Sequence record: KR014248
DNA from: Escherichia phage vB_EcoM_AYO145A
DNA length: 64,000 bases
Strand: one strand, 5' to 3'
Shown: in pieces, positions 1 through 31,327 of the stretch
How the letters are laid out: every line of letters starts with the position of its first letter
Numbering within the stretch: the first letter of the stretch is position 1
Position numbers and translations under genes: made by a program
The notes under the pieces: generated by a model
Seen by the model: only the letters and a program-made list of their open reading frames with translations
The model's database searches: none
Told to the model about the DNA's origin: nothing

Positions 1-2292
1 ATGACACCTGAAATGTTCAGCCTTCTGAGTTCTGGTGTATATACATTTAAAGAGCGAGCAGTGATTCGTGAACTGTCATGTAACGCAGTAGATGCTCAGA
101 AAGAAGCTGGAAAAGAGAACATCCCATTCCATGTGCATTTACCTACTCGTTTTGAGCCTTACTTCGAAGTTCGTGATTTTGGAACTGGATTGACTCATGA
201 TAAAGTTATGAGTTTGTATCTGAACTACGGAGCTTCTACGAAGAATGACTCTAATGATTACATTGGTGCAATGGGTATCGGCTCAAAGTCACCATTTGCA
301 ATTGCTCAGTCATTCACAGTATCTAGCTATGTTGATGGTGTTGTTAATAAGTACTCTGTTTATCTTGAGAATGGTATTCCTCAAGTAACTAAGCTGACAA
401 CTAACCCAACAAAAGAACCTAATGGTTTAGCTGTACGTGTGGCAGTTGCTGACCACCGTATCTCAAAGTTCTTTGAAGAAGCTGGGAATGTGTACTCATA
501 CTTTGCTGTAAAACCAGAAAGTAATATTGTGTACGACGATGTATTAGCAGATATGAACGTCATTGCCCGTGAAGAGGGTGTTTATGATGCCATGATTCAT
601 AAGCAAAGCTGGCGTTCTAGTGGTAACAGGACAGAATTTAATGTGGTGATGGGTAACATTGCCTACCCTGTTAACATGGAAGCATTACTTGGTGATGATT
701 TCTTCAAAATCTTGCCAGAATTTTTCCGTAGGAGCGTAGACCTTGTAAACATCTACATGCCTATTGGTTCAGTCGCTATTGCAGCTTCTCGTGAAGCATT
801 GCAGATGAATGACACGACAAAAAATGTCATCATTGAGGCTACCAAAAAGATAACTGAAGCAATTACAAGGGATGTTATTAAGGGAGTTAATAGCCAACCT
901 ACACTTATGGATGCTGCACAGGCTTATGCAGAGTTACGTTTGAACTCACGAGAGATGTTTAATGCTGTGTGTCCAAAGCTAGAGTGGGGAGGTGTTAAGC
1001 TTGACTCTCTGGAAGAAGAATTGTTAAACATTCGTCGTGGAATTATCTACGCAGAAGACGGCTCAGTCATCTATGAACGTGACGGCAAAGGTAATATTAA
1101 GGTTGACAGTAAAGGAAACAACATTCCTAAAGTGGACTACCTATACAATCCAGTTGCTTATGTTAAGTTCAACTCTTTAGAGAGTAAGATTCGTGCAACA
1201 GCACTTTCCTACACTCAAGAGGCGAGCATGTTCAATATCTTTGGTGCAATGCGTAAAAGCCAAATTGAACAGTTTTTGTTTGTGATTAATGACCGTCGCA
1301 ATAAAAACGGAACTGAGAAGACTGTAGGCCGCAATCAGATTCTGCGTGGTGCATGTCGAGACTACGCCAGTGAGTCAAGCCTGTTTCACAGATACAATGG
1401 TATTGTGTTTGTATTCTCGACTGAAAAAGAGTTAGATGACTTAATCAATCTGCACAAACTTGATAAAAGCTTGTTAAAGATTGTGAAAATGTCTGATAAG
1501 GAACACCATTACCAGCGTAAAGAAGCTGTAAGAGGTGTTGTAAAACTCTGGAAAGCTGTTCCAGCAGAAGGTGTAGCCTCCTACAAAGAGGTGTCAGAGG
1601 ACTTAGACACAATTGAAGAGTCTCAGCTTTATATTAAGGCAGTAGGTGACACAGTTGATGGTAGATGTTTTTGCTCATCTCCAGAGGATGTAGCTAAGTC
1701 AGTTGCTAATGTTATTGGGAAGACAGTCTATGTTTTCCGAAAAGCAAATTGGAAAAAGATACCAGAAGACTGGATTGAAGTAGATGAGAAGCTCTTGAAC
1801 GACAGCTTAACTGATGTTCATTGGATTAATCATAACAGGTATATGACACGCATCTACATGAATGGTGTTCTTGACCTTACAAGTAGCTGGATTATTGCCA
1901 GAAACTTTACATTCAATAATAGGAAGATTTCTCGTGGTTATTGCTATTCACGGGATACAAACAAAACTATCTTCCTAGAAGGTAATGAAGAGGCTGTAGA
2001 GGCAATGTTCGGTAAAATCCAATACGTTGCTGCACAGTTTGCATACACTTACACTATTAGTCGGTTGCAAACTTTGAAAGAGTGCCTTGACAATGATACA
2101 AAGCTGTACAAGAAAATTAAGAAAGCTGGTGACCGTATGGTTATTAAGGTGACAAACTACCTTTCAAAAAGAAAACAAGAAAACTTCTTGCTTTCTCATT
2201 TAGATTGGAATAAAGTGTCACCCATCGAAGTGAGTAAGTTCTTAGGCTTTGATGTGAAGTGTGTTCCAGAAGGGACTACAATTTACGATTAA
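1..2292 (+). CDS. rIIA: rIIA-like protein (GHKL-type ATPase fold); may be 5'-truncated at window edge
   Basis: 763-aa ORF starting at base 1; N-terminal GHKL-like boxes (ELSCNAVDA, DFGTGL, GIGSKSPF); followed by an rIIB-like gene. Confidence 0.75.
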   Translation: MTPEMFSLLSSGVYTFKERAVIRELSCNAVDAQKEAGKENIPFHVHLPTRFEPYFEVRDFGTGLTHDKVMSLYLNYGASTKNDSNDYIGAMGIGSKSPFAIAQSFTVSSYVDGVVNKYSVYLENGIPQVTKLTTNPTKEPNGLAVRVAVADHRISKFFEEAGNVYSYFAVKPESNIVYDDVLADMNVIAREEGVYDAMIHKQSWRSSGNRTEFNVVMGNIAYPVNMEALLGDDFFKILPEFFRRSVDLVNIYMPIGSVAIAASREALQMNDTTKNVIIEATKKITEAITRDVIKGVNSQPTLMDAAQAYAELRLNSREMFNAVCPKLEWGGVKLDSLEEELLNIRRGIIYAEDGSVIYERDGKGNIKVDSKGNNIPKVDYLYNPVAYVKFNSLESKIRATALSYTQEASMFNIFGAMRKSQIEQFLFVINDRRNKNGTEKTVGRNQILRGACRDYASESSLFHRYNGIVFVFSTEKELDDLINLHKLDKSLLKIVKMSDKEHHYQRKEAVRGVVKLWKAVPAEGVASYKEVSEDLDTIEESQLYIKAVGDTVDGRCFCSSPEDVAKSVANVIGKTVYVFRKANWKKIPEDWIEVDEKLLNDSLTDVHWINHNRYMTRIYMNGVLDLTSSWIIARNFTFNNRKISRGYCYSRDTNKTIFLEGNEEAVEAMFGKIQYVAAQFAYTYTISRLQTLKECLDNDTKLYKKIKKAGDRMVIKVTNYLSKRKQENFLLSHLDWNKVSPIEVSKFLGFDVKCVPEGTTIYD

Positions 2293-26381: not shown

Positions 26382-26458
26382 CTCTGTTTAGCTCAGCTTG
26401 GTAGAGCGTTCCGTTTGGGGCGGTAAGGCCGGAGGTTCAAGTCCTCCAACAGAGACCA
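26382..26458 (+). tRNA. tRNA-Pro(TGG)
   Basis: cloverleaf by eye; anticodon loop TTTGGGG; D- and T-arms close to E. coli tRNA-Pro; CCA encoded. Confidence 0.75.
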
Positions 26459-26465
26459 AATTAAT

Positions 26466-26543
26466 GTTCCAGTAGACAAAATGGTAAAGTCACCACTCTT
26501 TCAAAGTGGATATTTGAGGGTTCAAATCCCTTCTGGAACGCCA
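26466..26543 (+). tRNA. tRNA-Glu(TTC)
   Basis: acceptor GTTCCAG/CTGGAAC; anticodon loop CTTTCAA; T-loop TTCAAAT; CCA. Confidence 0.7.
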
Positions 26544-26550
26544 GTTTTGA

Positions 26551-26623
26551 CAGAAGACCAATTACAGCAAACTTAATCTTATTCATCTGACACGAAATCG
26601 GACAAAGAAGAGATTTGGTCTGG
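26551..26623 (+). ncRNA. structured spacer RNA candidate (CAGAAGACC...GGTCTGG family, copy 1)
   Basis: 5' CAGAAGACCA and 3' TGGTCTGG form the terminal helix; shared internal CAGCAA box. Confidence 0.3.
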
Positions 26624-26634
26624 TCATTAAGAAT

Positions 26635-26711
26635 TGCGGGTATAGAGAAAGGGCGTCTCACATGTCTCATTAGCATGGTATCGGCAGGTTCGACTCCTGC
26701 ACCCGCCTCCA
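26635..26711 (+). tRNA. tRNA-Met(CAT), or Ile2/fMet
   Basis: anticodon loop CTCATTA; T-arm GCAGGttcgactCCTGC; CCA. Confidence 0.55.
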
Positions 26712-26717
26712 ATTTTG

Positions 26718-26777
26718 CAGAAGACCGTATGCAGCAATAAACTACTTTTTGCGGATAAAAGAAAAAACACGGTCTGG
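26718..26777 (+). ncRNA. structured spacer RNA candidate (same family, copy 2)
   Basis: CAGAAGACCG ... CGGTCTGG; compensatory G:C where copy 1 has A:T. Confidence 0.3.
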
Positions 26778-26788
26778 CAATGTATTAA

Positions 26789-26865
26789 GGTTAGGAAGCA
26801 CATAAGGTATGTGCGGTCGCCTGTTAAGCGAATGGCACAGGGTTCGAATCCCTGACTAACCGCCA
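26789..26865 (+). tRNA. tRNA-Asn(GTT)
   Basis: anticodon loop CTGTTAA; T-arm CAGGGttcgaatCCCTG; CCA. Confidence 0.65.
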
Positions 26866-26874
26866 AATTTAAAT

Positions 26875-26962
26875 GTGTCGTTATCCCGTAGATGGTAGCG
26901 GTGGGGACTGTAAATCCCTTGTCATTGAGACTCGGTAGGTTCGACTCCTACACGGCACACCA
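26875..26962 (+). tRNA. tRNA-Tyr(GTA)
   Basis: 88 nt with long variable arm; anticodon loop CTGTAAA; CCA. Confidence 0.7.
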
Positions 26963-26968
26963 AATAAA

Positions 26969-27046
26969 GGTTATGTAGTTTAATCTGGTTAAAATACTCC
27001 CCTGTCACGGGAGATGATGAGGGTTCAAATCCCTTCGTAACCGCCA
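26969..27046 (+). tRNA. tRNA-Asp(GTC)
   Basis: anticodon stem CTCCC/GGGAG, loop CTGTCAC; CCA. Confidence 0.75.
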
Positions 27047-27133
27047 AATTATAATAAGTATTCCAAGATGATGTTTTGAGAGGGCTATTTAGCCCCTCCC
27101 TTAAAGAGTTCTTACGAGTATTCTTTAAAGGAG

Positions 27134-27210
27134 CAGAAGACCAAATTCAGCAAGTACGTATGATATTTTCAAGCCAATTTAATTTTGAAAAAATTTAAAA
27201 CTTGGTCTGG
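27134..27210 (+). ncRNA. structured spacer RNA candidate (same family, copy 3)
   Basis: CAGAAGACCAA ... TTGGTCTGG. Confidence 0.3.
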
Positions 27211-27223
27211 CTCAACAAATTTA

Positions 27224-27355
27224 CAGAAGACCGTTTACAGCAAAACTTAAACAATCTATTTCTCCGGTAAAGAAAAGGCGAAGGTTCGATTCCTTCACTC
27301 GGCAGATGTCGAGTTGGTGTAATGGTAGCACTTAAGATGATAAACAACGGTCTGG
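27224..27355 (+). ncRNA. Y-RNA-like RNA candidate (YrlA-type, permuted tRNA-like module)
   Basis: terminal helix AGACCGT/ACGGTCT; inside, T-arm GAAGGttcgattCCTTC, then ACTCGGC-agat-GTCGAGT acceptor-like hairpin, then TG and D-arm GTGTaatggtaGCAC; about 1 kb downstream of the Ro60-like gene. Confidence 0.45.
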
Positions 27356-27357
27356 TA

Positions 27358-27500
27358 ATTATCTTTGTAGATAAGTTATTAAGCTTACCTGTGAGTATGC
27401 GACCACAAAGGGTGAAAGGGTAAATTCTAGATTTAAACCCAACAAGGCACATCGCTACAGACCTTAAGCAAGTCTGGGTAGCTTATCTACAAAGATAATT
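27358..27500 (+). ncRNA. structured RNA candidate closed by a perfect 19-bp inverted repeat
   Basis: AATTATCTTTGTAGATAAG (27358-27376) is the exact reverse complement of CTTATCTACAAAGATAATT (27482-27500); internal CAGACcttaagcaaGTCTG hairpin. Confidence 0.35.
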
Positions 27501-27505
27501 TTAAT

Positions 27506-27581
27506 GGAAGTGTAGCAGAATGGTGATGCGGCAGACTTTTAATCTGACAGGCGATGGGTTCGAATCCCTCCACTTCTACCA
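27506..27581 (+). tRNA. tRNA-Lys(TTT)
   Basis: anticodon loop CTTTTAA; T-loop TTCGAAT; CCA. Confidence 0.65.
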
Positions 27582-27585
27582 ATAT

Positions 27586-27662
27586 GGTTCAGTCGCAGAT
27601 AAGGTAATGCAGGGGTCTCATAAGCCCTATGAATGTGGGTTCGATTCCCATCTGAACCTCCA
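27586..27662 (+). tRNA. tRNA-Met/Ile(CAT)
   Basis: acceptor GGTTCAG/CTGAACC; anticodon loop CTCATAA; CCA. Confidence 0.65.
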
Positions 27663-27663
27663 A

Positions 27664-27739
27664 GCTGGTATAGTTAAGAAGGTTATAACACTCCCCTGAT
27701 AAGGGAACATCGGTGGTTCGATTCCACCTACCAGTACCA
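27664..27739 (+). tRNA. tRNA-Ile(GAT)
   Basis: D-stem GTTA/TAAC; anticodon loop CTGATAA; T-arm GGTGGttcgattCCACC; CCA. Confidence 0.65.
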
Positions 27740-27754
27740 ATTTCAATAAAGTTG

Positions 27755-27783
27755 TTGACATTGAGATGTGACTACTTTATAGT
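27755..27783 (+). promoter_or_regulatory. sigma70-like promoter (TTGACA-N17-TATAGT)
   Basis: internal promoter inside the tRNA island. Confidence 0.5.
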
Positions 27784-27987
27784 AACCTTAGTTTTCGTTG
27801 CGTAGCGTCTATTTTGCAAATTTAAAATAAATGCAAACGACAATGTTTTTCTGGCAGTAGCTTGATAGGCTAAACACCAGTGAGGTCTTCCAATCCCTCA
27901 TCAAAGAATTTGGCGTACTCGCCCACGGTATGATTAATAAGGTGGGCATCTTTAAGGGCTTTCTAAGAGAGTCTTTAAAGATAATTA

Positions 27988-28069
27988 CGGGGCGTATCTC
28001 AGCGGTCTTCTAAACCGCCGTTAACCGAGTAAGTGGAGTATGCGGGTTCGAGTCCTGCCGCCTCGACCA
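27988..28069 (+). tRNA. tRNA-like, possibly Arg(TCT); non-canonical D region
   Basis: good acceptor (CGGGGCG/CGCCTCG), T-arm and CCA; GCGGTcttctaaACCGC fits an anticodon arm but leaves no room for a normal D-arm. Confidence 0.35.
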
Positions 28070-28211
28070 AATAGTTAGCAGATTACTTAGACGGTCTTAG
28101 CGGGTCTTCCTGTAGGGAGGTGGTCTGTATCTCATGTTTTCCAGAACATGTAAATAATCTGAGAAGGGGCTTTACAGTGTTGAGATAATACGGTAAGCTT
28201 CGAATTATAGT

Positions 28212-28294
28212 GTGGGACGATGTTAAGACTCTAAGGCATGAGCAACGGCTTCCAACACCGTTTCAAAGGGGTTCAACTCCTCCGTCCCATGCCA
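28212..28294 (+). tRNA. tRNA-like, possibly Trp(CCA); enlarged D region or anticodon loop
   Basis: acceptor GTGGGAC/GTCCCAT, T-loop TTCAACT, CCA; AACGG-cttccaaca-CCGTT contains CCA in a 7- or 9-nt loop. Confidence 0.35.
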
Positions 28295-28307
28295 AAGTCT
28301 TATTAGG

Positions 28308-28395
28308 GGTAGGTAGCGGCTAATGGTAGCCAAACTGTCTTGAAAACAGTTGCCACTGTAGAGATACGGTGAGGGTTCGACTCCTTTACTTACCG
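28308..28395 (+). tRNA. tRNA-Ser(TGA)
   Basis: class II: anticodon stem ACTGT/ACAGT, loop CTTGAAA, long variable arm; 3' CCA not encoded (GCCT). Confidence 0.65.
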
Positions 28396-28652
28396 CCTAA
28401 TAAGATTTAAAGCCAAGCTTCATTCGGATGTTGCTTTGGTATACCGCGTGTATTGTTGTACGCACTGATAAAGCACCTAGTAGGTGTCACGGAGAAGAGA
28501 TAATATCAAGCTCTCCAAAGGTTCTAGTCACCGGATTAAACAAGACTATGCAAAGACCTTTTTAGGTCTTTTTAGAGGGCTTCTAAGGTTATTACAGCTT
28601 GTTGTGGAACCTTGTTGCTTAGGTTCTTAGAAGTTCTCTAAAAAGACTTAAT

Positions 28653-28730
28653 GGGAGATTGACGGTAATTGGTAAACCTATCTCGCTTAGAACGAGATGT
28701 TTGAGGGTTCGAATCCCTTGTCTCCTACCA
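28653..28730 (+). tRNA. tRNA with anticodon TAG (Leu by anticodon; class-I-like shape)
   Basis: anticodon stem TCTCG/CGAGA, loop CTTAGAA; T-loop TTCGAAT; CCA; short variable loop. Confidence 0.5.
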
Positions 28731-28737
28731 AATTAAT

Positions 28738-28813
28738 GCAGGTGTAGCAAAATGGTTATGCGGCTGACTCTTAATCAGTAAGACGATGGGTTCAATTCCC
28801 TCCACCTGTACCA
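28738..28813 (+). tRNA. tRNA-Lys(CTT), tentative
   Basis: acceptor GCAGGTG/CACCTGT; anticodon loop CTCTTAA; weak T-stem; CCA. Confidence 0.5.
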
Positions 28814-28819
28814 AACAAT

Positions 28820-28895
28820 GGGGATGTAGTTTACATGGTTAAAACATAAGTTTTGCAAACTTAAGTACAGGGTTCAATTCCCTGCTTCTCCACCA
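28820..28895 (+). tRNA. tRNA-Ala(TGC)
   Basis: anticodon stem TAAGT/ACTTA, loop TTTGCAA; T-arm CAGGGttcaattCCCTG; CCA. Confidence 0.65.
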
Positions 28896-28901
28896 ATTAG
28901 T

Positions 28902-28976
28902 GCATCCATAGTTTAAACGGGAAAATTACAGTCTTCCAAACTGAGGTTGAGGGTTCGATTCCCTCTGGATGCTCCA
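28902..28976 (+). tRNA. tRNA-Gly(TCC)
   Basis: acceptor GCATCCA/TGGATGC; anticodon loop CTTCCAA; CCA. Confidence 0.7.
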
Positions 28977-28982
28977 AACAAT

Positions 28983-29059
28983 GCTGCTTTCGTATAATTG
29001 GCTATTACACATCCCTTGTAAGGATGGAAATGCAGGTTCGAGTCCTGTGAGCAGCACCA
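28983..29059 (+). tRNA. tRNA-Thr(TGT)
   Basis: anticodon stem CATCC/GGATG, loop CTTGTAA; CCA. Confidence 0.7.
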
Positions 29060-29062
29060 ATT

Positions 29063-29150
29063 CAGAGGTCAAGTGAAAGACCGCTTTGAGTCAACTGAAG
29101 ACCGTAACAAATTCCACGGAGTTGAGTTAGCGGCACAACTCCAGACCTCT
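29063..29150 (+). ncRNA. structured spacer element
   Basis: outer helix AGAGGTC/GACCTCT enclosing GGAGTTGagttagcggcaCAACTCC hairpin and a GAAGACCG box. Confidence 0.25.
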
Positions 29151-29155
29151 TTCAT

Positions 29156-29230
29156 ACTCGCTTAGTTTATATGGTAAAACATCACCCTTACAAGATGAAG
29201 AAAAAGGTTCAAGCCCTTTAGTGAGTACCA
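29156..29230 (+). tRNA. tRNA-Val(TAC)
   Basis: D-stem GTTT/AAAC; anticodon loop CTTACAA; CCA. Confidence 0.65.
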
Positions 29231-29231
29231 T

Positions 29232-29309
29232 GTTCCAGTATCCCAATTGGCAGAGGATGCAAGCTCAAACCTTGTATTAGTGACGGTTCGAATCCGTCTT
29301 GGAACACCA
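29232..29309 (+). tRNA. tRNA with anticodon CAA (Leu by anticodon)
   Basis: anticodon stem GCAAG/CTTGT, loop CTCAAAC; T-arm GACGGttcgaatCCGTC; CCA. Confidence 0.55.
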
Positions 29310-29314
29310 ATTTT

Positions 29315-29390
29315 GCAGGATTAGTTCAAATGGAAAGAGCAACAGTCTACGAAGCTGTTAATAGGGGTTCGAATCCCTTATCCTGCGCCA
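29315..29390 (+). tRNA. tRNA-Arg(ACG)
   Basis: acceptor GCAGGAT/ATCCTGC; anticodon loop CTACGAA; CCA. Confidence 0.7.
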
Positions 29391-29409
29391 ATTTAAAGAG
29401 GCTATTTAG

Positions 29410-29967
29410 ATGAGATATTTGAAGTATGCTTCATGGATTTTCTTAGCTTTGTTAGAGCCATTTGCAGCAATCTTAGCAGTTATCTTAGCACCTTTCGTAG
29501 TTCCATTCTACAGTGAGAAGAAAGGCCACTTACCTTTCGGATTTAGATGGATGGAGACCTATGACAACCCGATTGATGGTGATGAAGGCCACGTTAAAAG
29601 ATGGGCTAAGATTAGAAAGATTGGTAAGCTCGGTGTTTATATGCAGAGAGTTGGATGGCTCTGGAGAAACAAAGCTTATAACTTCTCTTACCATGTATTA
29701 GGAAGAGATGTAAAAGATGTTACTAAGTGGAAAGGTAATATCAACGTAAGTTCTAACCCTGAAGATAATCAGACAGGTTATCTCCTAATGTGGAACAGTA
29801 ATGCTTGGGGATTATTTGCTTTTATCCCATCTATTAAAGTCTTTGGTAAACAATTCTACTGGAGAATTTATGTTGGGTGGAAACTAAAAAGTGTTGTCCC
29901 AGAAGAAAGAGCATTCTCAAGGGAAAGAGTTATGTTGGCATTCTTTATTCATCCACTAAGAAAATAA
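29410..29967 (+). CDS. hypothetical membrane protein embedded in the tRNA island
   Basis: 185-aa ORF with N-terminal hydrophobic segment; flanked by tRNAs. Confidence 0.5.
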   Translation: MRYLKYASWIFLALLEPFAAILAVILAPFVVPFYSEKKGHLPFGFRWMETYDNPIDGDEGHVKRWAKIRKIGKLGVYMQRVGWLWRNKAYNFSYHVLGRDVKDVTKWKGNINVSSNPEDNQTGYLLMWNSNAWGLFAFIPSIKVFGKQFYWRIYVGWKLKSVVPEERAFSRERVMLAFFIHPLRK

Positions 29968-29975
29968 AGATTTAA

Positions 29976-30051
29976 AGGGGATTAGTTTACAAGGTTAAAA
30001 CCTCGGTCTTTGAAATCGAAGAAGTTGGTTCAATTCCAACATCCCCCGCCA
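29976..30051 (+). tRNA. tRNA-Gln(TTG)
   Basis: anticodon stem TCGGT/ATCGA, loop CTTTGAA; T-arm GTTGGttcaattCCAAC; CCA. Confidence 0.65.
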
Positions 30052-30053
30052 AT

Positions 30054-30132
30054 GCTCCATTACTCCAATTGGCAGAGAGGCCAGACTTAAAATCTGTGTT
30101 ATGTATCGGTTCGAATCCGATATGGAGTACCA
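30054..30132 (+). tRNA. tRNA with anticodon TAA (Leu by anticodon)
   Basis: anticodon loop CTTAAAA; T-arm ATCGGttcgaatCCGAT; CCA; 7-nt variable loop. Confidence 0.55.
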
Positions 30133-30137
30133 AATTT

Positions 30138-30213
30138 AGCGGTATAGCATAACTGGCAATGCAACAGTCTCTGAAGCTGTCCTATTAAGGTTCAAATCCT
30201 TATGCCGCTGCCA
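30138..30213 (+). tRNA. tRNA-Gln(CTG)
   Basis: anticodon loop CTCTGAA; T-arm TAAGGttcaaatCCTTA; CCA. Confidence 0.65.
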
Positions 30214-30244
30214 CTTCTAAGGGTTCTTACGAGAGTCCTTAAAT

Positions 30245-30320
30245 GTGGCCTTATCATAAAAGGTAATGACCCATGCTGTGAACATGGTCTATACGGGTTC
30301 AAATCCCGTAGGTCACCCCA
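30245..30320 (+). tRNA. tRNA-His(GTG)
   Basis: anticodon stem CCATG/CATGG, loop CTGTGAA; CCA. Confidence 0.7.
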
Positions 30321-30326
30321 ATTTAT

Positions 30327-30402
30327 AGTCCAAGTAGCTTATATGGTTAAAGCGCGTGTCTGAAAAACATGAGAAGAGGGTTCAAATCCCACTGGACTAC
30401 CA
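30327..30402 (+). tRNA. tRNA-Phe(GAA)
   Basis: D-stem GCTT/AAGC; anticodon loop CTGAAAA; T-loop TTCAAAT; CCA. Confidence 0.65.
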
Positions 30403-30418
30403 ATTTCAAAGGTGCTTA

Positions 30419-31153
30419 ATGAAAGAGATGACAGAACAAGGTAAGGAGATTTTTAATCTCTTAAAAACCGGTAAAGGGTTCTCTAACCCGCTTATTACTG
30501 GTGCAGCAGTTCTCGGTGGAACCGTAGCTGCTTCTACATCACTTGTAAGCTCTATTAGTTCTGTAACAGACCCTACAATGAAGGAGAAACTTGTTGCTGC
30601 TGGACTTACAACAGTCCTTTTAAACAGCTTTACAACAAGCCTTACAAGCACTACAGCAACTACTAAGACCCTAACAGACTACGGTCAAAAGTCTATTGAT
30701 GAGTTTTCATCACGTATGCAGGTAGCAAAGGGATACTCCAATGTTATGGGTGCAGTAGGAGAACAAGTTGGTTGTACACCATTCAGTGGTATTATGGGTG
30801 TTGCTACAGAGTATGGTCAAAAAGCTATTGACACAATTAACAGTGCACTAGACGGTGTTAATGATGTATTAAGTGACTTACAAGATGCTATTGATAAAGG
30901 TCTTGATACTGTTTCTGATTTAGCTAACCAAGCTGTTAGTAAGATTAATGAAGGTATCTCAAAGATTACAGCTTATGCAGATGAAGTTGTGCAGATGATT
31001 GAAGAAGAAGCTGCCCTTATTGCAGAGTACCTTAAAACAAATATCAATGGGTTCTTAGCAGGTATCTTACCAGACTGGTTTGATGATGCTTGTAAAACTG
31101 GTGTGATTGATACTATTGCAACACCAGAAATGAAGAACGCATTACAGAAATAA
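30419..31153 (+). CDS. hypothetical Ser/Thr/Ala-rich protein
   Basis: the ORF-track start at 30356 lies inside tRNA-Phe; first ATG after the tRNA is 30419; low-complexity N-terminal half. Confidence 0.5.
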   Translation: MKEMTEQGKEIFNLLKTGKGFSNPLITGAAVLGGTVAASTSLVSSISSVTDPTMKEKLVAAGLTTVLLNSFTTSLTSTTATTKTLTDYGQKSIDEFSSRMQVAKGYSNVMGAVGEQVGCTPFSGIMGVATEYGQKAIDTINSALDGVNDVLSDLQDAIDKGLDTVSDLANQAVSKINEGISKITAYADEVVQMIEEEAALIAEYLKTNINGFLAGILPDWFDDACKTGVIDTIATPEMKNALQK

Positions 31154-31154
31154 T

Positions 31155-31247
31155 GGAAGATTAACCCTAAAAGGTAAGGGAGCAGTTTGCTAAACTGCCA
31201 GTAGCTGAGAAATCGGTGTACCAGTTCAAGTCTGGTATCTTCCTCCA
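31155..31247 (+). tRNA. tRNA-Ser(GCT)
   Basis: class II, 93 nt: acceptor GGAAGAT/ATCTTCC, anticodon stem GCAGT/ACTGC, loop TTGCTAA, long variable arm; CCA. Confidence 0.65.
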
Positions 31248-31251
31248 ATTT

Positions 31252-31327
31252 GAATCCGTGACAGAAATGGCTATGTGCCTGTCTGCAAAACAGGTTTATA
31301 AGGGTTCGAGTCCCTTCGGATTCTCCA
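31252..31327 (+). tRNA. tRNA-Cys(GCA)
   Basis: acceptor GAATCCG/CGGATTC; anticodon stem CCTGT/ACAGG, loop CTGCAAA; CCA. Confidence 0.7.

Follow-up and report, generated by a model that had tools for sequence, protein, structure and literature searches.

Conserved tRNA-like RNAs with non-canonical cores and short-armed leucine tRNAs in the tRNA cluster of a Felix O1-like phage

The tRNA cluster and its atypical members

The window analysed here, a stretch of 64,000 nucleotides from Escherichia phage vB_EcoM_AYO145A (sequence record KR014248), contains the tRNA cluster of a Felixounavirus, or Felix O1-like phage. ARAGORN in bacterial mode finds 25 tRNAs in the window, which cover 19 amino acids and leave Trp as the sole absentee. 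Two other tRNA-like sequences, element 1 (27988-28069) and element 2 (28212-28294), lie exactly where a sequence-only reading of this DNA had placed them, and both have the acceptor stem, T arm and encoded CCA which it described (Table 1). It had also observed that element 1 has no space for a D-arm, and indeed a D hairpin cannot fit there because only 7 nt separate the acceptor and anticodon stems. The 9-nt anticodon loop that it ascribed to element 2 is likewise real, in that the loop is kept across lineages in which the stem, here AACGG/CCGTT, has changed. The outcome it had named as its refutation, an ordinary class I or class II fold by standard tools, was obtained for neither element with ARAGORN or the Rfam tRNA model. 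Both elements are conserved RNAs.

The same reading remarked on short variable loops in three tRNAs with the Leu anticodons TAG, CAA and TAA, and ARAGORN bears this out (Table 1). These tRNAs, of 78, 78 and 79 nt including CCA, resemble class II bacterial tRNA-Leu in their anticodons, in A73 and in the AAUUGG-type D-loops that all three possess; unlike it, none has a long variable arm, the variable region being 4-7 nt. According to PMC9976931 the long arm of tRNA-Leu is universal save in animal mitochondria, and E. coli LeuRS requires A73 and the D/T tertiary interactions, the long arm being dispensable. In Sf14, a phage of the genus Mooglevirus in the same subfamily, the Leu isotype model of tRNAscan-SE is the best-scoring one for the tRNAs that share these three anticodons (PMC12482277). 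Short Leu tRNAs are also present at phage loci L006, L008, L022, L036, L061, L067 and L083 (three copies). The three in the window are probably true leucine tRNAs minus the long variable arm, a lack that E. coli LeuRS would tolerate.

Table 1. Positions, in window coordinates, of the parts of elements 1 and 2 and of the short-armed leucine tRNAs
Feature	Position	Strand	Pairing, conservation or source
Element 1, acceptor 5' strand CGGGGCG	27988..27994	+	Pairs with 28059-28065, including the G3:U70 wobble; compensatory changes at 7/7 pairs, 43 homologues
Element 1, linker UAU (analogues of U8 A9, plus U)	27995..27997	+	TAT invariant in alignment A4; TAC in the short-linker subfamily
Element 1, D-like helix 5' strand CUC	27998..28000	+	Partner GAG 28027-28029; helix encloses the anticodon arm
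Element 1, anticodon arm GCGGT/ACCGC, 5 bp, 7-nt loop CUUCUAA	28002..28018	+	Anticodon UCU 28009-28011; 5/5 pairs covary
Element 1, 8-nt linker CGUUAACC, anticodon stem to D-like helix 3' strand	28019..28026	+	CGTTAA invariant in A4
Element 1, D-like helix 3' strand GAG	28027..28029	+	Covariation with the CUC strand
Element 1, D-loop-like connector UAAGUGGAGUAU	28030..28041	+	GG then A, like G18 G19 A20; abuts the T stem directly
Element 1, T arm GCGGG / UUCGAGU / CCUGC	28042..28058	+	Canonical G53-C61, TTCRA loop; 3/5 pairs covary
Element 1, acceptor 3' strand CGCCUCG, discriminator A73, encoded CCA	28059..28069	+	Sequence
Element 2, acceptor 5' strand GUGGGACG, 8 nt	28212..28219	+	Pairs with 28283-28290; 100% paired
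Element 2, linker AUGUUAAGA, 9 nt against the usual 2 nt (positions 8-9)	28220..28228	+	Invariant in Felixounavirus and Mooglevirus
Element 2, D arm, 3-bp CUC/GAG, 8-nt loop UAAGGCAU containing GG	28229..28242	+	Middle pair UA 5, AU 5; third pair CG or UG
Element 2, anticodon arm AACGG/CCGUU, 9-nt loop CUUCCAACA	28244..28262	+	CCA 28252-28254; double changes at 4/5 pairs
Element 2, T arm, 4-bp GGGG/CCUC, loop UUCAACU	28268..28282	+	Outer pair GC to UA in Shigella phage Sf14
Element 2, acceptor 3' strand CGUCCCAU, G73, encoded CCA	28283..28294	+	Sequence
tRNA-Leu(UAG), class I shape, 4-nt variable region, A73	28653..28730	+	ARAGORN; Rfam tRNA 44.5 bits
tRNA-Leu(CAA), class I shape, 5-nt variable region, A73	29232..29309	+	ARAGORN; Rfam tRNA 44.0 bits
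tRNA-Leu(UAA), class I shape, 7-nt variable region, A73	30054..30132	+	ARAGORN; Rfam tRNA 47.5 bits

Fold, distribution and amino acid type of element 1

ARAGORN does not call element 1 in bacterial mode, with lowered thresholds or in mitochondrial mode. The Rfam tRNA model (RF00005) matches 27988-28066 at 31.7 bits, against a gathering score of 29, in an alignment that collapses the D-arm to 4 nt and inserts 20 nt in the variable region. Taken at face value this alignment describes a class II tRNA in which the D-arm is missing and the variable arm is long, a fold that we rejected for leaving a CNC/GNG covariation unexplained. In other respects element 1, which is 79 nt long without CCA, has canonical cloverleaf features: a 7-bp acceptor, A73, CCA, a 5-bp anticodon stem and a 7-nt loop. 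The D-arm hairpin (positions 9 to 26) is absent; the CUC that follows the linker finds its partner 3' of the anticodon arm, within the 23 nt that come after it, and the two strands covary.

The evidence for this fold is comparative. Across 43 distinct homologues, 99.1% of the cells in the helices of element 1 are paired, with double (compensatory) changes at 16 of the 20 pairs; sliding the partners as a control lowers pairing to 34-46%. For the D-like helix we used 65 variants that had been extracted without a pairing or anticodon filter. All 65 lack the D hairpin and all 65 have Watson-Crick pairs at 3/3 positions of this 3-bp helix, in which pair 1 does not vary and the other two covary (pair 2: UA 43, GC 11, AU 10, CG 1; pair 3: CG 54, GC 7, UA 4). 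RNAalifold did not predict the D-like helix, and element 1, folded as a single sequence, is no more stable than shuffled sequences (z = 0.04). Its single-sequence minimum-energy fold contains a CCG/UGG hairpin in the variable region. This mini-hairpin (alignment columns 38-40 with 47-49) has 90% of its cells paired and 13 unpaired over the 43 sequences; it was rejected as the conserved fold because it has no compensatory change and clashes with the fully covarying D-like helix. A descriptor of the fold retrieves nothing but family members from 1.57 Mb of phage DNA, both strands, and a covariance model gives the family 52-102 bits against 32 bits or less for every ordinary tRNA. Covariation thus supports the fold of element 1, as it does that of element 2.

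The connector segment TGGAGTAT is invariant in the 43 sequences and is similar to the D-loop AACTGGACA in the canonical tRNA-Arg(UCU) that phage REP7 carries at this locus, from which we infer a D-loop-like role. The linker CGUUAACC is replaced in divergent members by 3-4 nt (AGYN, TCA).

The family is widespread and hardly ever annotated: 65 distinct variants are present in 261 GenBank phage records, where they have no label, are called 'tRNA-OTHER' or are marked pseudo. They sit within the tRNA clusters of a T5-like Klebsiella phage, Justusliebigvirus, Mydovirus, the jumbo Asteriusvirus, and Streptomyces and Pseudomonas phages, and occur also in Felix O1, phi92 and several jumbo phages. Unrelated phage families share element 1 at 82-90% identity, the reach extending to Streptomyces phages. 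None of 5,426 complete E. coli genomes contains it, and a survey of one genome per species, for 185,579 species, gave only 7 matches; 4 of these fit the fold, and those 4 are on metagenome-assembled contigs. The sequence-only reading was right about the oddity of the D region, and had missed both the helix that encloses the anticodon arm and this phage-wide family. Homing endonuclease genes often adjoin element 1. One copy, at L081:1458-1540, is interrupted.

All 65 variants carry an Arg anticodon (UCU in 62, and UCG, CCU and ACG in one each), and the anticodon loop reads YUUCUAM in nearly all. No non-Arg member of the rewired fold was found by an anticodon-agnostic pattern scan, a covariance-model search or the structural descriptor over 1.57 Mb. 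In 63 variants the discriminator is G in 36, A in 24 and another base in 3 (purine in 60/63), and CCA is encoded in 46/63. The determinants of E. coli-type ArgRS are A20, C35, U or G at 36, and A or G at 73 (PMC9976931). Every one of the 65 variants has C35, followed by U36 (UCU/CCU) or G36 (UCG/ACG), and an invariant A follows the GG of the connector (UGGAGU, 43 sequences), which by its place in the sequence would be the analogue of A20. C35, position 36 and the purine at 73 match the ArgRS determinants and are counted for Arg identity, with the invariant GGA as a putative match to A20. The window copy has G2-C71, G3:U70, G4-C69 and A73, and its charging identity is not certain because G3:U70 with A73 is an AlaRS determinant.

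In phage REP7 (L007:549-625) and Citrobacter phage Michonne (L009:730-805), a canonical tRNA-Arg(UCU) occupies the exact slot of element 1, with identical flanks. Element 1 shares with it the CUUCUAA loop, the T-arm type, the 7-bp acceptor, a purine discriminator, CCA and the GG-then-A of the D-loop. It differs in the absent D hairpin, in a D-like helix closed on the anticodon side, in the position of the D-loop-like segment 3' of the anticodon arm, and in the 8-nt (or 3-4 nt) linker that replaces the variable loop. ARAGORN finds no other AGA-reading tRNA in the window, where AGA is the commonest Arg codon (256 of 616 in 57 long ORFs).

Animal mitochondrial tRNAs that lack the D-arm, such as tRNA-Ser(AGY/UCU) (PMC7609411), resemble element 1 in having no conventional D hairpin between the stems and an effectively extended helix below the junction, and in being missed by the bacterial mode of ARAGORN. 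Unlike them, element 1 has a canonical T-loop and a GG connector, is not truncated, is bacteriophage-encoded and of Arg type, and is missed by the mitochondrial mode also. We also considered element 1 as the tRNA-like domain of an adjacent tmRNA-like RNA. With such a domain the window copy has G3:U70 in common; it differs in having an anticodon arm, which is complete, and an acceptor stem closed within the element. For these reasons the assignment was rejected, and further because element 1 occurs without the tag-coding RNA in other phages and because the same upstream RNA precedes the canonical tRNA-Arg in REP7 and Michonne.

Fold and amino acid type of element 2

Element 2 departs from the cloverleaf at other points. 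Its acceptor, GTGGGACG/CGTCCCAT, has 8 bp where a strict cloverleaf has 7, its anticodon loop, CTTCCAACA, has 9 nt where the canonical loop has 7, and its variable loop is the 5-nt UCAAA. ARAGORN does not call it in bacterial mode, and the Rfam tRNA model gives no match even at E<=10; the metazoan-mitochondrial mode of ARAGORN reports it as Trp(cca) with a 9-nt loop. The T-arm register given by ARAGORN (5-bp stem, 5-nt loop) was rejected since the Sf14 variant breaks it; that variant keeps the 4-bp/7-nt register. A promoter-like site at 28180-28208 was likewise rejected as the promoter of element 2, within which its transcription start would fall.

Element 2 is present in 234 records across Ounavirinae, Felix O1 included, and is annotated as a tRNA in none. 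Its conservation alone proves little, because the flanking spacer is also highly conserved. In 10 homologues, from only about four independent lineages, 100% of the cells in its helices are paired, with double changes at 8 of 20 pairs and in all four helices. Across Ounavirinae the acceptor has AU, GU or GC as its first pair and UA or CG as its second. The anticodon stem takes the forms AACGG/CCGTT, GTAAG/CTTAC and GTAGG/CCTAC, so that variants differ at up to 4/5 pairs, and the 9-nt loop persists throughout because the closing bases (31-39) are permanently unpaired, always mismatched as C-A or C-C. The linker grows to 11 nt in Pectobacterium phage Arno162. There is no variation in the CCA anticodon, in G73, in the T-loop or at the CCA end. 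No copy was found outside Ounavirinae by a pattern scan of viral contigs or by BLAST with the Arno162 copy, and blastn gave no match in 5,426 E. coli genomes. Among the phage loci examined, the only other tRNA with a 9-nt anticodon loop is a Leu tRNA at L067, with a 31-39 mismatch.

The Trp identity elements, namely discriminator, anticodon and 1-72 pair, are present in element 2, the first pair being A1-U72 in 7/9 sequences, G1-U72 in the window and G1-C72 in Arno162. It resembles E. coli tRNA-Trp in its loop core CUCCAAA (Michonne and L051 variants), G73, A1-U72 and CCA end, and differs in the conserved 31-39 mismatch, the 7 extra nt before the D-stem, the 3-bp D-stem and the 8/4 arrangement. 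The loop of the E. coli tRNA is symmetric about U-CCA-A as in element 2, with a closing pair instead of the C-A mismatch. In having an 8-bp acceptor and a 4-bp T stem, 12 bp in total, element 2 is like the 8/4 tRNAs and allo-tRNAs of Mukai et al. (PMC5389517), of which the 8/4 tRNAs have also been reported from phage tRNA clusters. The reported 8/4 species are of Ser, His, Cys or Sec type, the allo-tRNAs having long variable arms, and the main text of that paper does not mention Trp. Unlike those species, element 2 combines a 5-nt variable loop with a CCA anticodon, a 9-nt anticodon loop and a 9-nt linker.

Proposed function and alternative explanations

On the evidence of sequence, we consider it likely that both elements are functional non-canonical tRNA genes, element 1 for Arg and element 2 for Trp, and that the Leu tRNAs are genuine. 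The three-dimensional arrangement, processing, charging and decoding described here are what we infer for these RNAs. Both elements would be transcribed inside the phage tRNA cluster. Element 1 would be an Arg tRNA with anticodon UCU that reads AGA through a rewired core: what is normally the 3' half of the D-stem, CUC, would stand right after U8-A9-U and run into the anticodon stem, its partner GAG and the D-loop-like UAAGUGGAGUAU being placed 3' of the anticodon arm and leading directly to the T stem. Because the strands are rewired and not lost, so that only chain order differs, the helices of an ordinary tRNA can still stack; the acceptor and the T arm would form one stack, the D-like helix and the anticodon stem the other, and the GG of the connector could still dock on the T-loop. 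The host ArgRS would probably charge it via the A after GG (as the A20 analogue), C35, U36 and the purine at 73, and element 1 would then supply the AGA decoding that the phage needs in quantity. Element 2 would be a phage tRNA-Trp, with anticodon CCA, G73 and, in most relatives, A1-U72, built on an 8/4 acceptor/T arrangement with an enlarged linker and a short D-arm.

It is possible, though we hold this only tentatively, that element 1 represents a new class of tRNA architecture, one that ArgRS still charges and the ribosome still uses, in which the D-stem strands and D-loop are reordered and a three-way junction takes the place of the four-way cloverleaf. This class has possibly spread among unrelated phages by being carried along with neighbouring homing endonuclease genes. 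The altered core might have favoured this by evading a host activity directed at the body of ordinary tRNA-Arg, for instance a defence nuclease or a checkpoint that depends on modification. In a bolder form of the proposal, the copies with G3:U70, including that of the window, may have a dual Arg/Ala identity. No published account of element 1, element 2 or a short-armed phage tRNA-Leu was found in full-text searches of a literature that takes in only a minority of subscription journals. A candidate motif, 'DNAVirus_2961', overlaps tRNA-Arg predictions (PMC10690425).

Odd phage tRNAs, pseudogenes and mis-folds were the three options of the sequence-only reading, and it is the first that is supported. 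That the elements are instead decaying pseudogenes, a broken tRNA-Arg and a broken tRNA-Trp carried as passive passengers in the cluster, is barely credible. Annotators did choose 'tRNA-OTHER' or pseudo for element 1, the genome paper on Mushroom gives 'two pseudo tRNA genes' (PMC4392139), standard tools miss both elements and there is an interrupted copy; however, compensatory changes have kept every helix intact in element 1 (65 variants) and in element 2 (about four lineages). The odd features are themselves conserved, which also argues against mis-folding, and element 1 retains its 82-90% identity in unrelated phage families and is found also in Streptomyces phages. We think it unlikely that element 1 is a non-decoding tRNA-shaped RNA, either a decoy or sponge for a host nuclease or modification enzyme that acts on tRNA-Arg, or a regulator that mimics tRNA-Arg. 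Such a role would be in keeping with phage tRNAs known to counter host tRNA nucleases (PMC10264068, and work on OLD and PARIS), with an odd core that could spoil use by the ribosome and EF-Tu and spare the anticodon loop, and with the canonical tRNA-Arg(UCU) that adjoins element 1 at two loci (L036, L047). Yet the four Arg anticodons, all with C35, fit codon-specific decoders better than a decoy for a single nuclease; the acceptor stem, T arm, CCA end, U33 and A37 are as in working tRNAs; the Felixounavirus copy replaces a canonical tRNA-Arg(UCU) and is no addition to it; and no Arg-specific tRNA defence nuclease was found in the papers on OLD and Schlafen that were consulted.

The acceptor of the window copy raises another question, since G3:U70 is a major and transplantable AlaRS determinant (PMC9976931). 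Element 1 here might be charged wholly or partly with Ala, which would make AGA ambiguous, or it might be the partner of an upstream tmRNA-like, tag-coding RNA. Its second to fourth pairs and A73 fit, G3:U70 is kept in Felixounavirus, T5-like Roth39, KPP-1 and Ecwhy_1 despite differing pairs 1 and 2, and a tmRNA-like tag ORF (27833-27865) lies directly upstream. We nevertheless regard either version as highly improbable: G3:U70 occurs in only 7 of 63 variants, with G3-C70 in the close relatives PHB05, L048 and L018, sister phages pair the same upstream RNA with a canonical tRNA-Arg bearing A3-U70, and the anticodon arm, unlike that of a tmRNA tRNA-like domain, is complete. As for element 2, its 9-nt anticodon loop and 9-nt linker could hinder ordinary decoding. 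Engineered tRNAs with 8-9-nt loops read extended codons, and UGA is read by a D-arm mutant of E. coli tRNA-Trp. Element 2 might read a four- or five-base codon, promote frameshifting, read UGA or be a non-decoding tRNA-like RNA; the 31-39 mismatch is found in every lineage though the neighbouring stem has been replaced, and the enlarged linker and 8/4 geometry are unusual. We judge this distinctly unlikely, in that the loop is symmetric around U-CCA-A, as in E. coli tRNA-Trp, all Trp identity elements are in place and Trp is the only amino acid that the called tRNAs leave uncovered. The reading we prefer is that of two working tRNAs, for Arg and for Trp.

The cloverleaf is usually taken as near-universal outside animal mitochondria. 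If the structure proposed for element 1 is true, a D-arm wired in another order means that the L-shape is attainable by a different chain topology, and this Arg-specific family, present in hundreds of sequenced phages, would be a natural test of what ArgRS, RNase P, EF-Tu, modification enzymes and the ribosome require. The short-armed Leu tRNAs, for their part, run against the textbook generalisation on class II tRNAs. Phage tRNA inventories are on this evidence systematically incomplete, and analyses of codon compensation and of phage tRNAs that counter host defence are distorted as a result. Felix O1-type phages, for which 22-23 tRNAs and no Trp tRNA have been reported, appear to carry a full 20-amino-acid set.

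The tRNA cluster and its two irregular genes

The window comes from a Felix O1-like phage (Ounavirinae, Felixounavirus); over positions 27740-28660 it shares 99.2% identity with Escherichia phage humlepung, and hundreds of related records also match. The 25 tRNA genes that ARAGORN identifies in the window serve 19 amino acids, with Trp the sole absentee and Arg supplied by ACG only. In bacterial mode ARAGORN called neither of two tRNA-like genes, element 1 (anticodon UCU) and element 2 (anticodon loop centred on CCA). The Rfam tRNA model accepts 27988-28066 of element 1 at 31.7 bits (gathering score 29) with the D-arm squeezed to 4 bases and 20 bases inserted in the variable region. Element 2 has no Rfam tRNA match even at E<=10, and is reported as Trp(cca) when ARAGORN is run in its permissive mitochondrial mode. 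The sequence-only reading had described one gene without room for a D-arm and one needing a 9-nt anticodon loop. Since ARAGORN's bacterial mode is silent on both and Rfam skips the D-arm of element 1, that description was accurate. The observation is confirmed, and of the explanations offered (odd phage tRNAs, pseudogenes or mis-folds) the first is supported. Function is inferred from sequence logic and genomic substitution. Genome papers on Felix O1-type phages report 22-23 tRNAs, and one paper counts two "pseudo" tRNAs; full-text searches that took in few subscription journals turned up nothing on the rewired Arg family, element 2 or short-armed phage Leu tRNAs.

Coordinates of the features discussed (L numbers denote other phage or contig loci compared)
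Feature	Locus	Position	Strand	Remark
tRNA cluster	window	26382-31327	+	ARAGORN
Promoter-like site	window	27755-27783		near-consensus sigma-70 (TTGACA-17-TATAGT)
tmRNA-like RNA	window	27790-27987		directly upstream of element 1
Tag ORF	window	27833-27865		second stop to 27868
Element 1	window	27988-28069		tRNA-like, UCU
D-like 3-bp helix of element 1	window	CUC 27998-28000 with GAG 28027-28029	+	encloses anticodon arm
Pair 3-70 of element 1	window	27990/28063		G3:U70
Spacer	window	28070-28211		142 nt, between elements 1 and 2
Mini-ORF	window	28134-28157		MFSRTCK
Element 2	window	28212-28294		tRNA-like, CCA
tRNA-Ser(UGA)	window	28308-28397		
Hairpin	window	28558-28657		just upstream of tRNA-Leu(UAG)
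Element 1 family, UCG	L039	3788-3865		
Element 1 family, ACG	L067	2689-2763		
Element 1 family, CCU	L047	12999		
Element 1 family, divergent	L047	13348-13426		D-like helix could not be placed
Element 1 family, interrupted	L081	1458-1540		unrelated sequence in place of T arm
HNH gene	L002 (Roth39)	1598-2107		directly downstream of element 1
HNH gene	L174 (Felix O1)	1652-2096		directly downstream of element 1
tRNA-Leu(CAA)	L067	1076-1152		31-39 mismatch
"tRNA-???" calls	L004	1036-1110; 2739-2808		ARAGORN
"tRNA-???" call	L014	262-337		ARAGORN
"tRNA-???" call	L067	1770-1845		ARAGORN
Mini-helix-like unit	L175 (KP13-27)	~820-880		downstream of tmRNA-like core

The weakest canonical call is tRNA-Ser(UGA), at 33.2 bits with the Rfam tRNA model; the tRNA-Sec model scores it higher, at 39 bits, under the gathering score of 47. 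Rfam matches the long, near-perfect hairpin farther downstream to plant microRNA precursor models at 34.6 bits, under the gathering score, surely by coincidence of shape; the hairpin may be a structure for processing or termination.

Element 2, the tRNA-Leu genes and a tmRNA-like RNA

Element 2 occurs only in Ounavirinae, namely Felixounavirus (including Felix O1), Mooglevirus and Arno162-type Pectobacterium phages, and none of the 234 records that carry it annotates a tRNA there. The acceptor stem has 8 bp; a linker of 9 nt, AUGUUAAGA, leads to a D-stem of 3 bp, whose loop UAAGGCAU contains GG. A single unpaired base separates this arm from the 5-bp anticodon stem with its 9-nt loop. After a variable loop of 5 nt come the T arm, with 4 bp and a canonical loop, then G73 and CCA. 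Because independent lineages are few and the adjacent spacer is also highly conserved, the case for element 2 rests on compensatory changes: among 10 sequences the fold is 100% paired, with double changes in 8 of 20 pairs and in all four helices. The anticodon stem has three main versions (AACGG/CCGTT, GTAAG/CTTAC and GTAGG/CCTAC) around a loop that stays C-Y-U-C-C-A-A-M-M, its two closing bases mismatched in every case. CCA, G73 and, in most relatives, A1-U72 are Trp identity elements.

The spacer itself hardly differs between Felixounavirus and Mooglevirus. It contains a Shine-Dalgarno-like GGGAGGTGG and then a mini-ORF (ATG TTT TCC AGA ACA TGT AAA TAA), which has one AGA codon and its start codon inside a 6-bp hairpin, CATGTT/AACATG.

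The short variable loops that the sequence-only reading had noted in tRNA-Leu(UAG), (CAA) and (UAA) are real: ARAGORN gives regions of 4, 5 and 7 nt, along with 3-bp D-stems, AAUUGG-type D-loops and A73 in all three, and Rfam scores them at 44-47.5 bits. For tRNAs with the same three anticodons in Sf14, a Mooglevirus of the same subfamily, the top tRNAscan-SE isotype model is Leu (PMC12482277). The long arm is kept everywhere but in animal mitochondria according to one review, which also notes that E. coli LeuRS relies on A73 and D/T-loop tertiary contacts rather than on that arm (PMC9976931). Several other phage loci compared have short Leu tRNAs of 75-80 nt, and the short-armed tRNA-Leu looks like an under-reported phage trait. 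A tRNA-Leu(CAA) at L067 has, through its 31-39 mismatch, a 9-nt loop as in element 2. Further non-canonical phage tRNAs are the "tRNA-???" genes, called by ARAGORN with two-base anticodons, meaning short anticodon loops, and found in clusters that also carry element 1.

Upstream of element 1, a promoter-like site precedes a tmRNA-like RNA containing UAAAUAAAU and then a tag ORF (GCA AAC GAC AAU GUU UUU CUG GCA GUA GCU UGA UAG), which encodes ANDNVFLAVA and two stops; the E. coli ssrA tag is ANDENYALAA. The Michonne copy differs by one synonymous and one stop-to-stop change only, and a helix downstream covaries. Rfam tmRNA models match weakly (16-20 bits), and no tRNA-like domain was detected in 27790-27987. 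The core recurs, unannotated, in 626 phage records that span several families (Ackermannviridae, Schitoviridae, and a number of Klebsiella and Escherichia phages of 48-60 kb), with the related tags ANEEMYLAVA, ANDNTFLAVA and ANDDVVLMAA. ARAGORN called a tmRNA in none of these phages; according to two genome announcements, it predicts an ssrA in Felix O1 and Moogle. In Klebsiella phage KP13-27, a unit of GCACAC, 8 nt, the T arm GGCGG-TTCGAAT-CCGC and GTGTGC, with CCA not encoded, may represent the tRNA-like end that the RNA otherwise lacks there.

Fold of element 1

Element 1 is the more striking of the two. We tested its fold (7-bp acceptor, 5-bp anticodon stem, 5-bp T stem, and a 3-bp helix of columns 11-13/40-42) on an alignment of 43 distinct sequences, where 99.1% of positions pair and 16 of 20 pairs show both-sided changes; sliding the partners by 1-3 columns reduces pairing to 34-46%. 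The 3-bp helix matters most, since the anticodon arm lies within it. In a recount over 65 variants, with no filter on pairing or anticodon, all 65 have three Watson-Crick pairs: the first is C-G without exception, the middle U-A (43), G-C (11), A-U (10) or C-G (1), and the third C-G (54), G-C (7) or U-A (4). One subgroup could form a fourth pair. A competing mini-hairpin is 90% paired with zero compensatory changes. RNAalifold recovers the three long stems and leaves out the 3-bp helix, and the folding energy of the single sequence does not improve on that of shuffled sequence. With a covariance model of the 43 sequences, searched against 681 kb, family members reach 52-102 bits while no ordinary tRNA exceeds 32 bits, and the window has exactly one copy (99.3 bits). 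All 44 matches of a hand-written structural descriptor in 1.57 Mb are family members.

Downstream of the D-like helix, an invariant UAA(N)UGGAGUAU runs directly into the canonical T arm. This segment resembles the D-loop AACUGGACA of the canonical tRNA-Arg(UCU) of sister phage REP7, including the A after GG, which suggests that the 5' strand of the D-stem, together with the D-loop, was relocated as a block to a place 3' of the anticodon arm. In that case the usual helices could still stack and the GG still meet the T-loop, the chain traversing the helices in another order than in an ordinary tRNA.

Range and probable arginine identity of the element 1 family

By BLAST, the 82 nt of element 1 match 261 GenBank phage records, almost all unannotated at the site and a few labelled "tRNA-OTHER". 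They include unrelated lineages: Felixounavirus, T5-like Klebsiella phages (Roth39, Sugarland, Spivey), Justusliebigvirus (phi92, PHB05), Mydovirus (KPP-1), jumbo Asteriusvirus (Ecwhy_1, PBECO4) and Streptomyces phages (BoomerJR, Yaboi); divergent queries also reach Pseudomonas, Proteus and Agrobacterium phages. Two IMG/VR pattern scans, both leaving the anticodon unspecified, added many more copies, giving 65 distinct variants after de-duplication. Across 185,579 bacterial and archaeal species (one genome each) only 7 stretches match the pattern. The 4 that fit the fold all lie on metagenome-assembled contigs, three with more tRNA genes close by (14 in L083) and the fourth, L086, with a single one at a distance of about 580 nt. 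Element 1 is absent from every complete E. coli genome searched. An interrupted member and a divergent one are listed in the table.

HNH endonuclease genes often adjoin element 1: directly downstream in Roth39 and Felix O1, between the two elements in warpig, bumzen and Alf5, immediately beside it at L015, L055, L038, L061, L066, L082, L121 and L125, and, in several unrelated contigs, as homologues no more than 1 kb from it. As an association only, this fits spread by homing-associated recombination. The annotated ORF45 of Felix O1 begins within the T arm of element 1, its MRVRVLPPRP being the translated 3' half of the tRNA, so its start codon was probably mis-called.

The anticodons of the family are all Arg: UCU in 62, and single cases of UCG, ACG and CCU. 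C35 is kept throughout, the GGA motif is invariant, and 60 of 63 variants have a purine discriminator. These features match ArgRS determinants listed as A20, C35, position 36 and A/G73 (PMC9976931), with the A after GG as the candidate for A20, which argues for arginine identity. The acceptor of the window copy (G2-C71, G3:U70, G4-C69, A73) corresponds to the alanine (AlaRS) determinant set. The G3:U70 set is shared with the Roth39, KPP-1 and Ecwhy_1 copies but not with PHB05, L048 or L018; G3:U70 occurs in only 7 of 63 variants, and close relatives have C70. We treat it as an oddity rather than a family property.

Genomic context bears on the arginine reading as well. In Felixounavirus and Mooglevirus, element 1 is allelic with ordinary tRNA-Arg(UCU); REP7 and Michonne carry the canonical gene in its slot between identical flanks. 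Many records match the query from base 66 onward only, several annotating tRNA-Arg there, a pattern consistent with the canonical allele that REP7 shows directly. In other phages, tRNA clusters house element 1 usually without a canonical tRNA-Arg(UCU) nearby, L036 and L047 being exceptions. The window has no other AGA-reading tRNA, and AGA is the commonest Arg codon in its 57 long ORFs (256 of 616 Arg codons, 17.3 per thousand). In sum, element 1 is conserved across phages, restricted to arginine anticodons and wired differently in its core; it would act as a tRNA specific for arginine.
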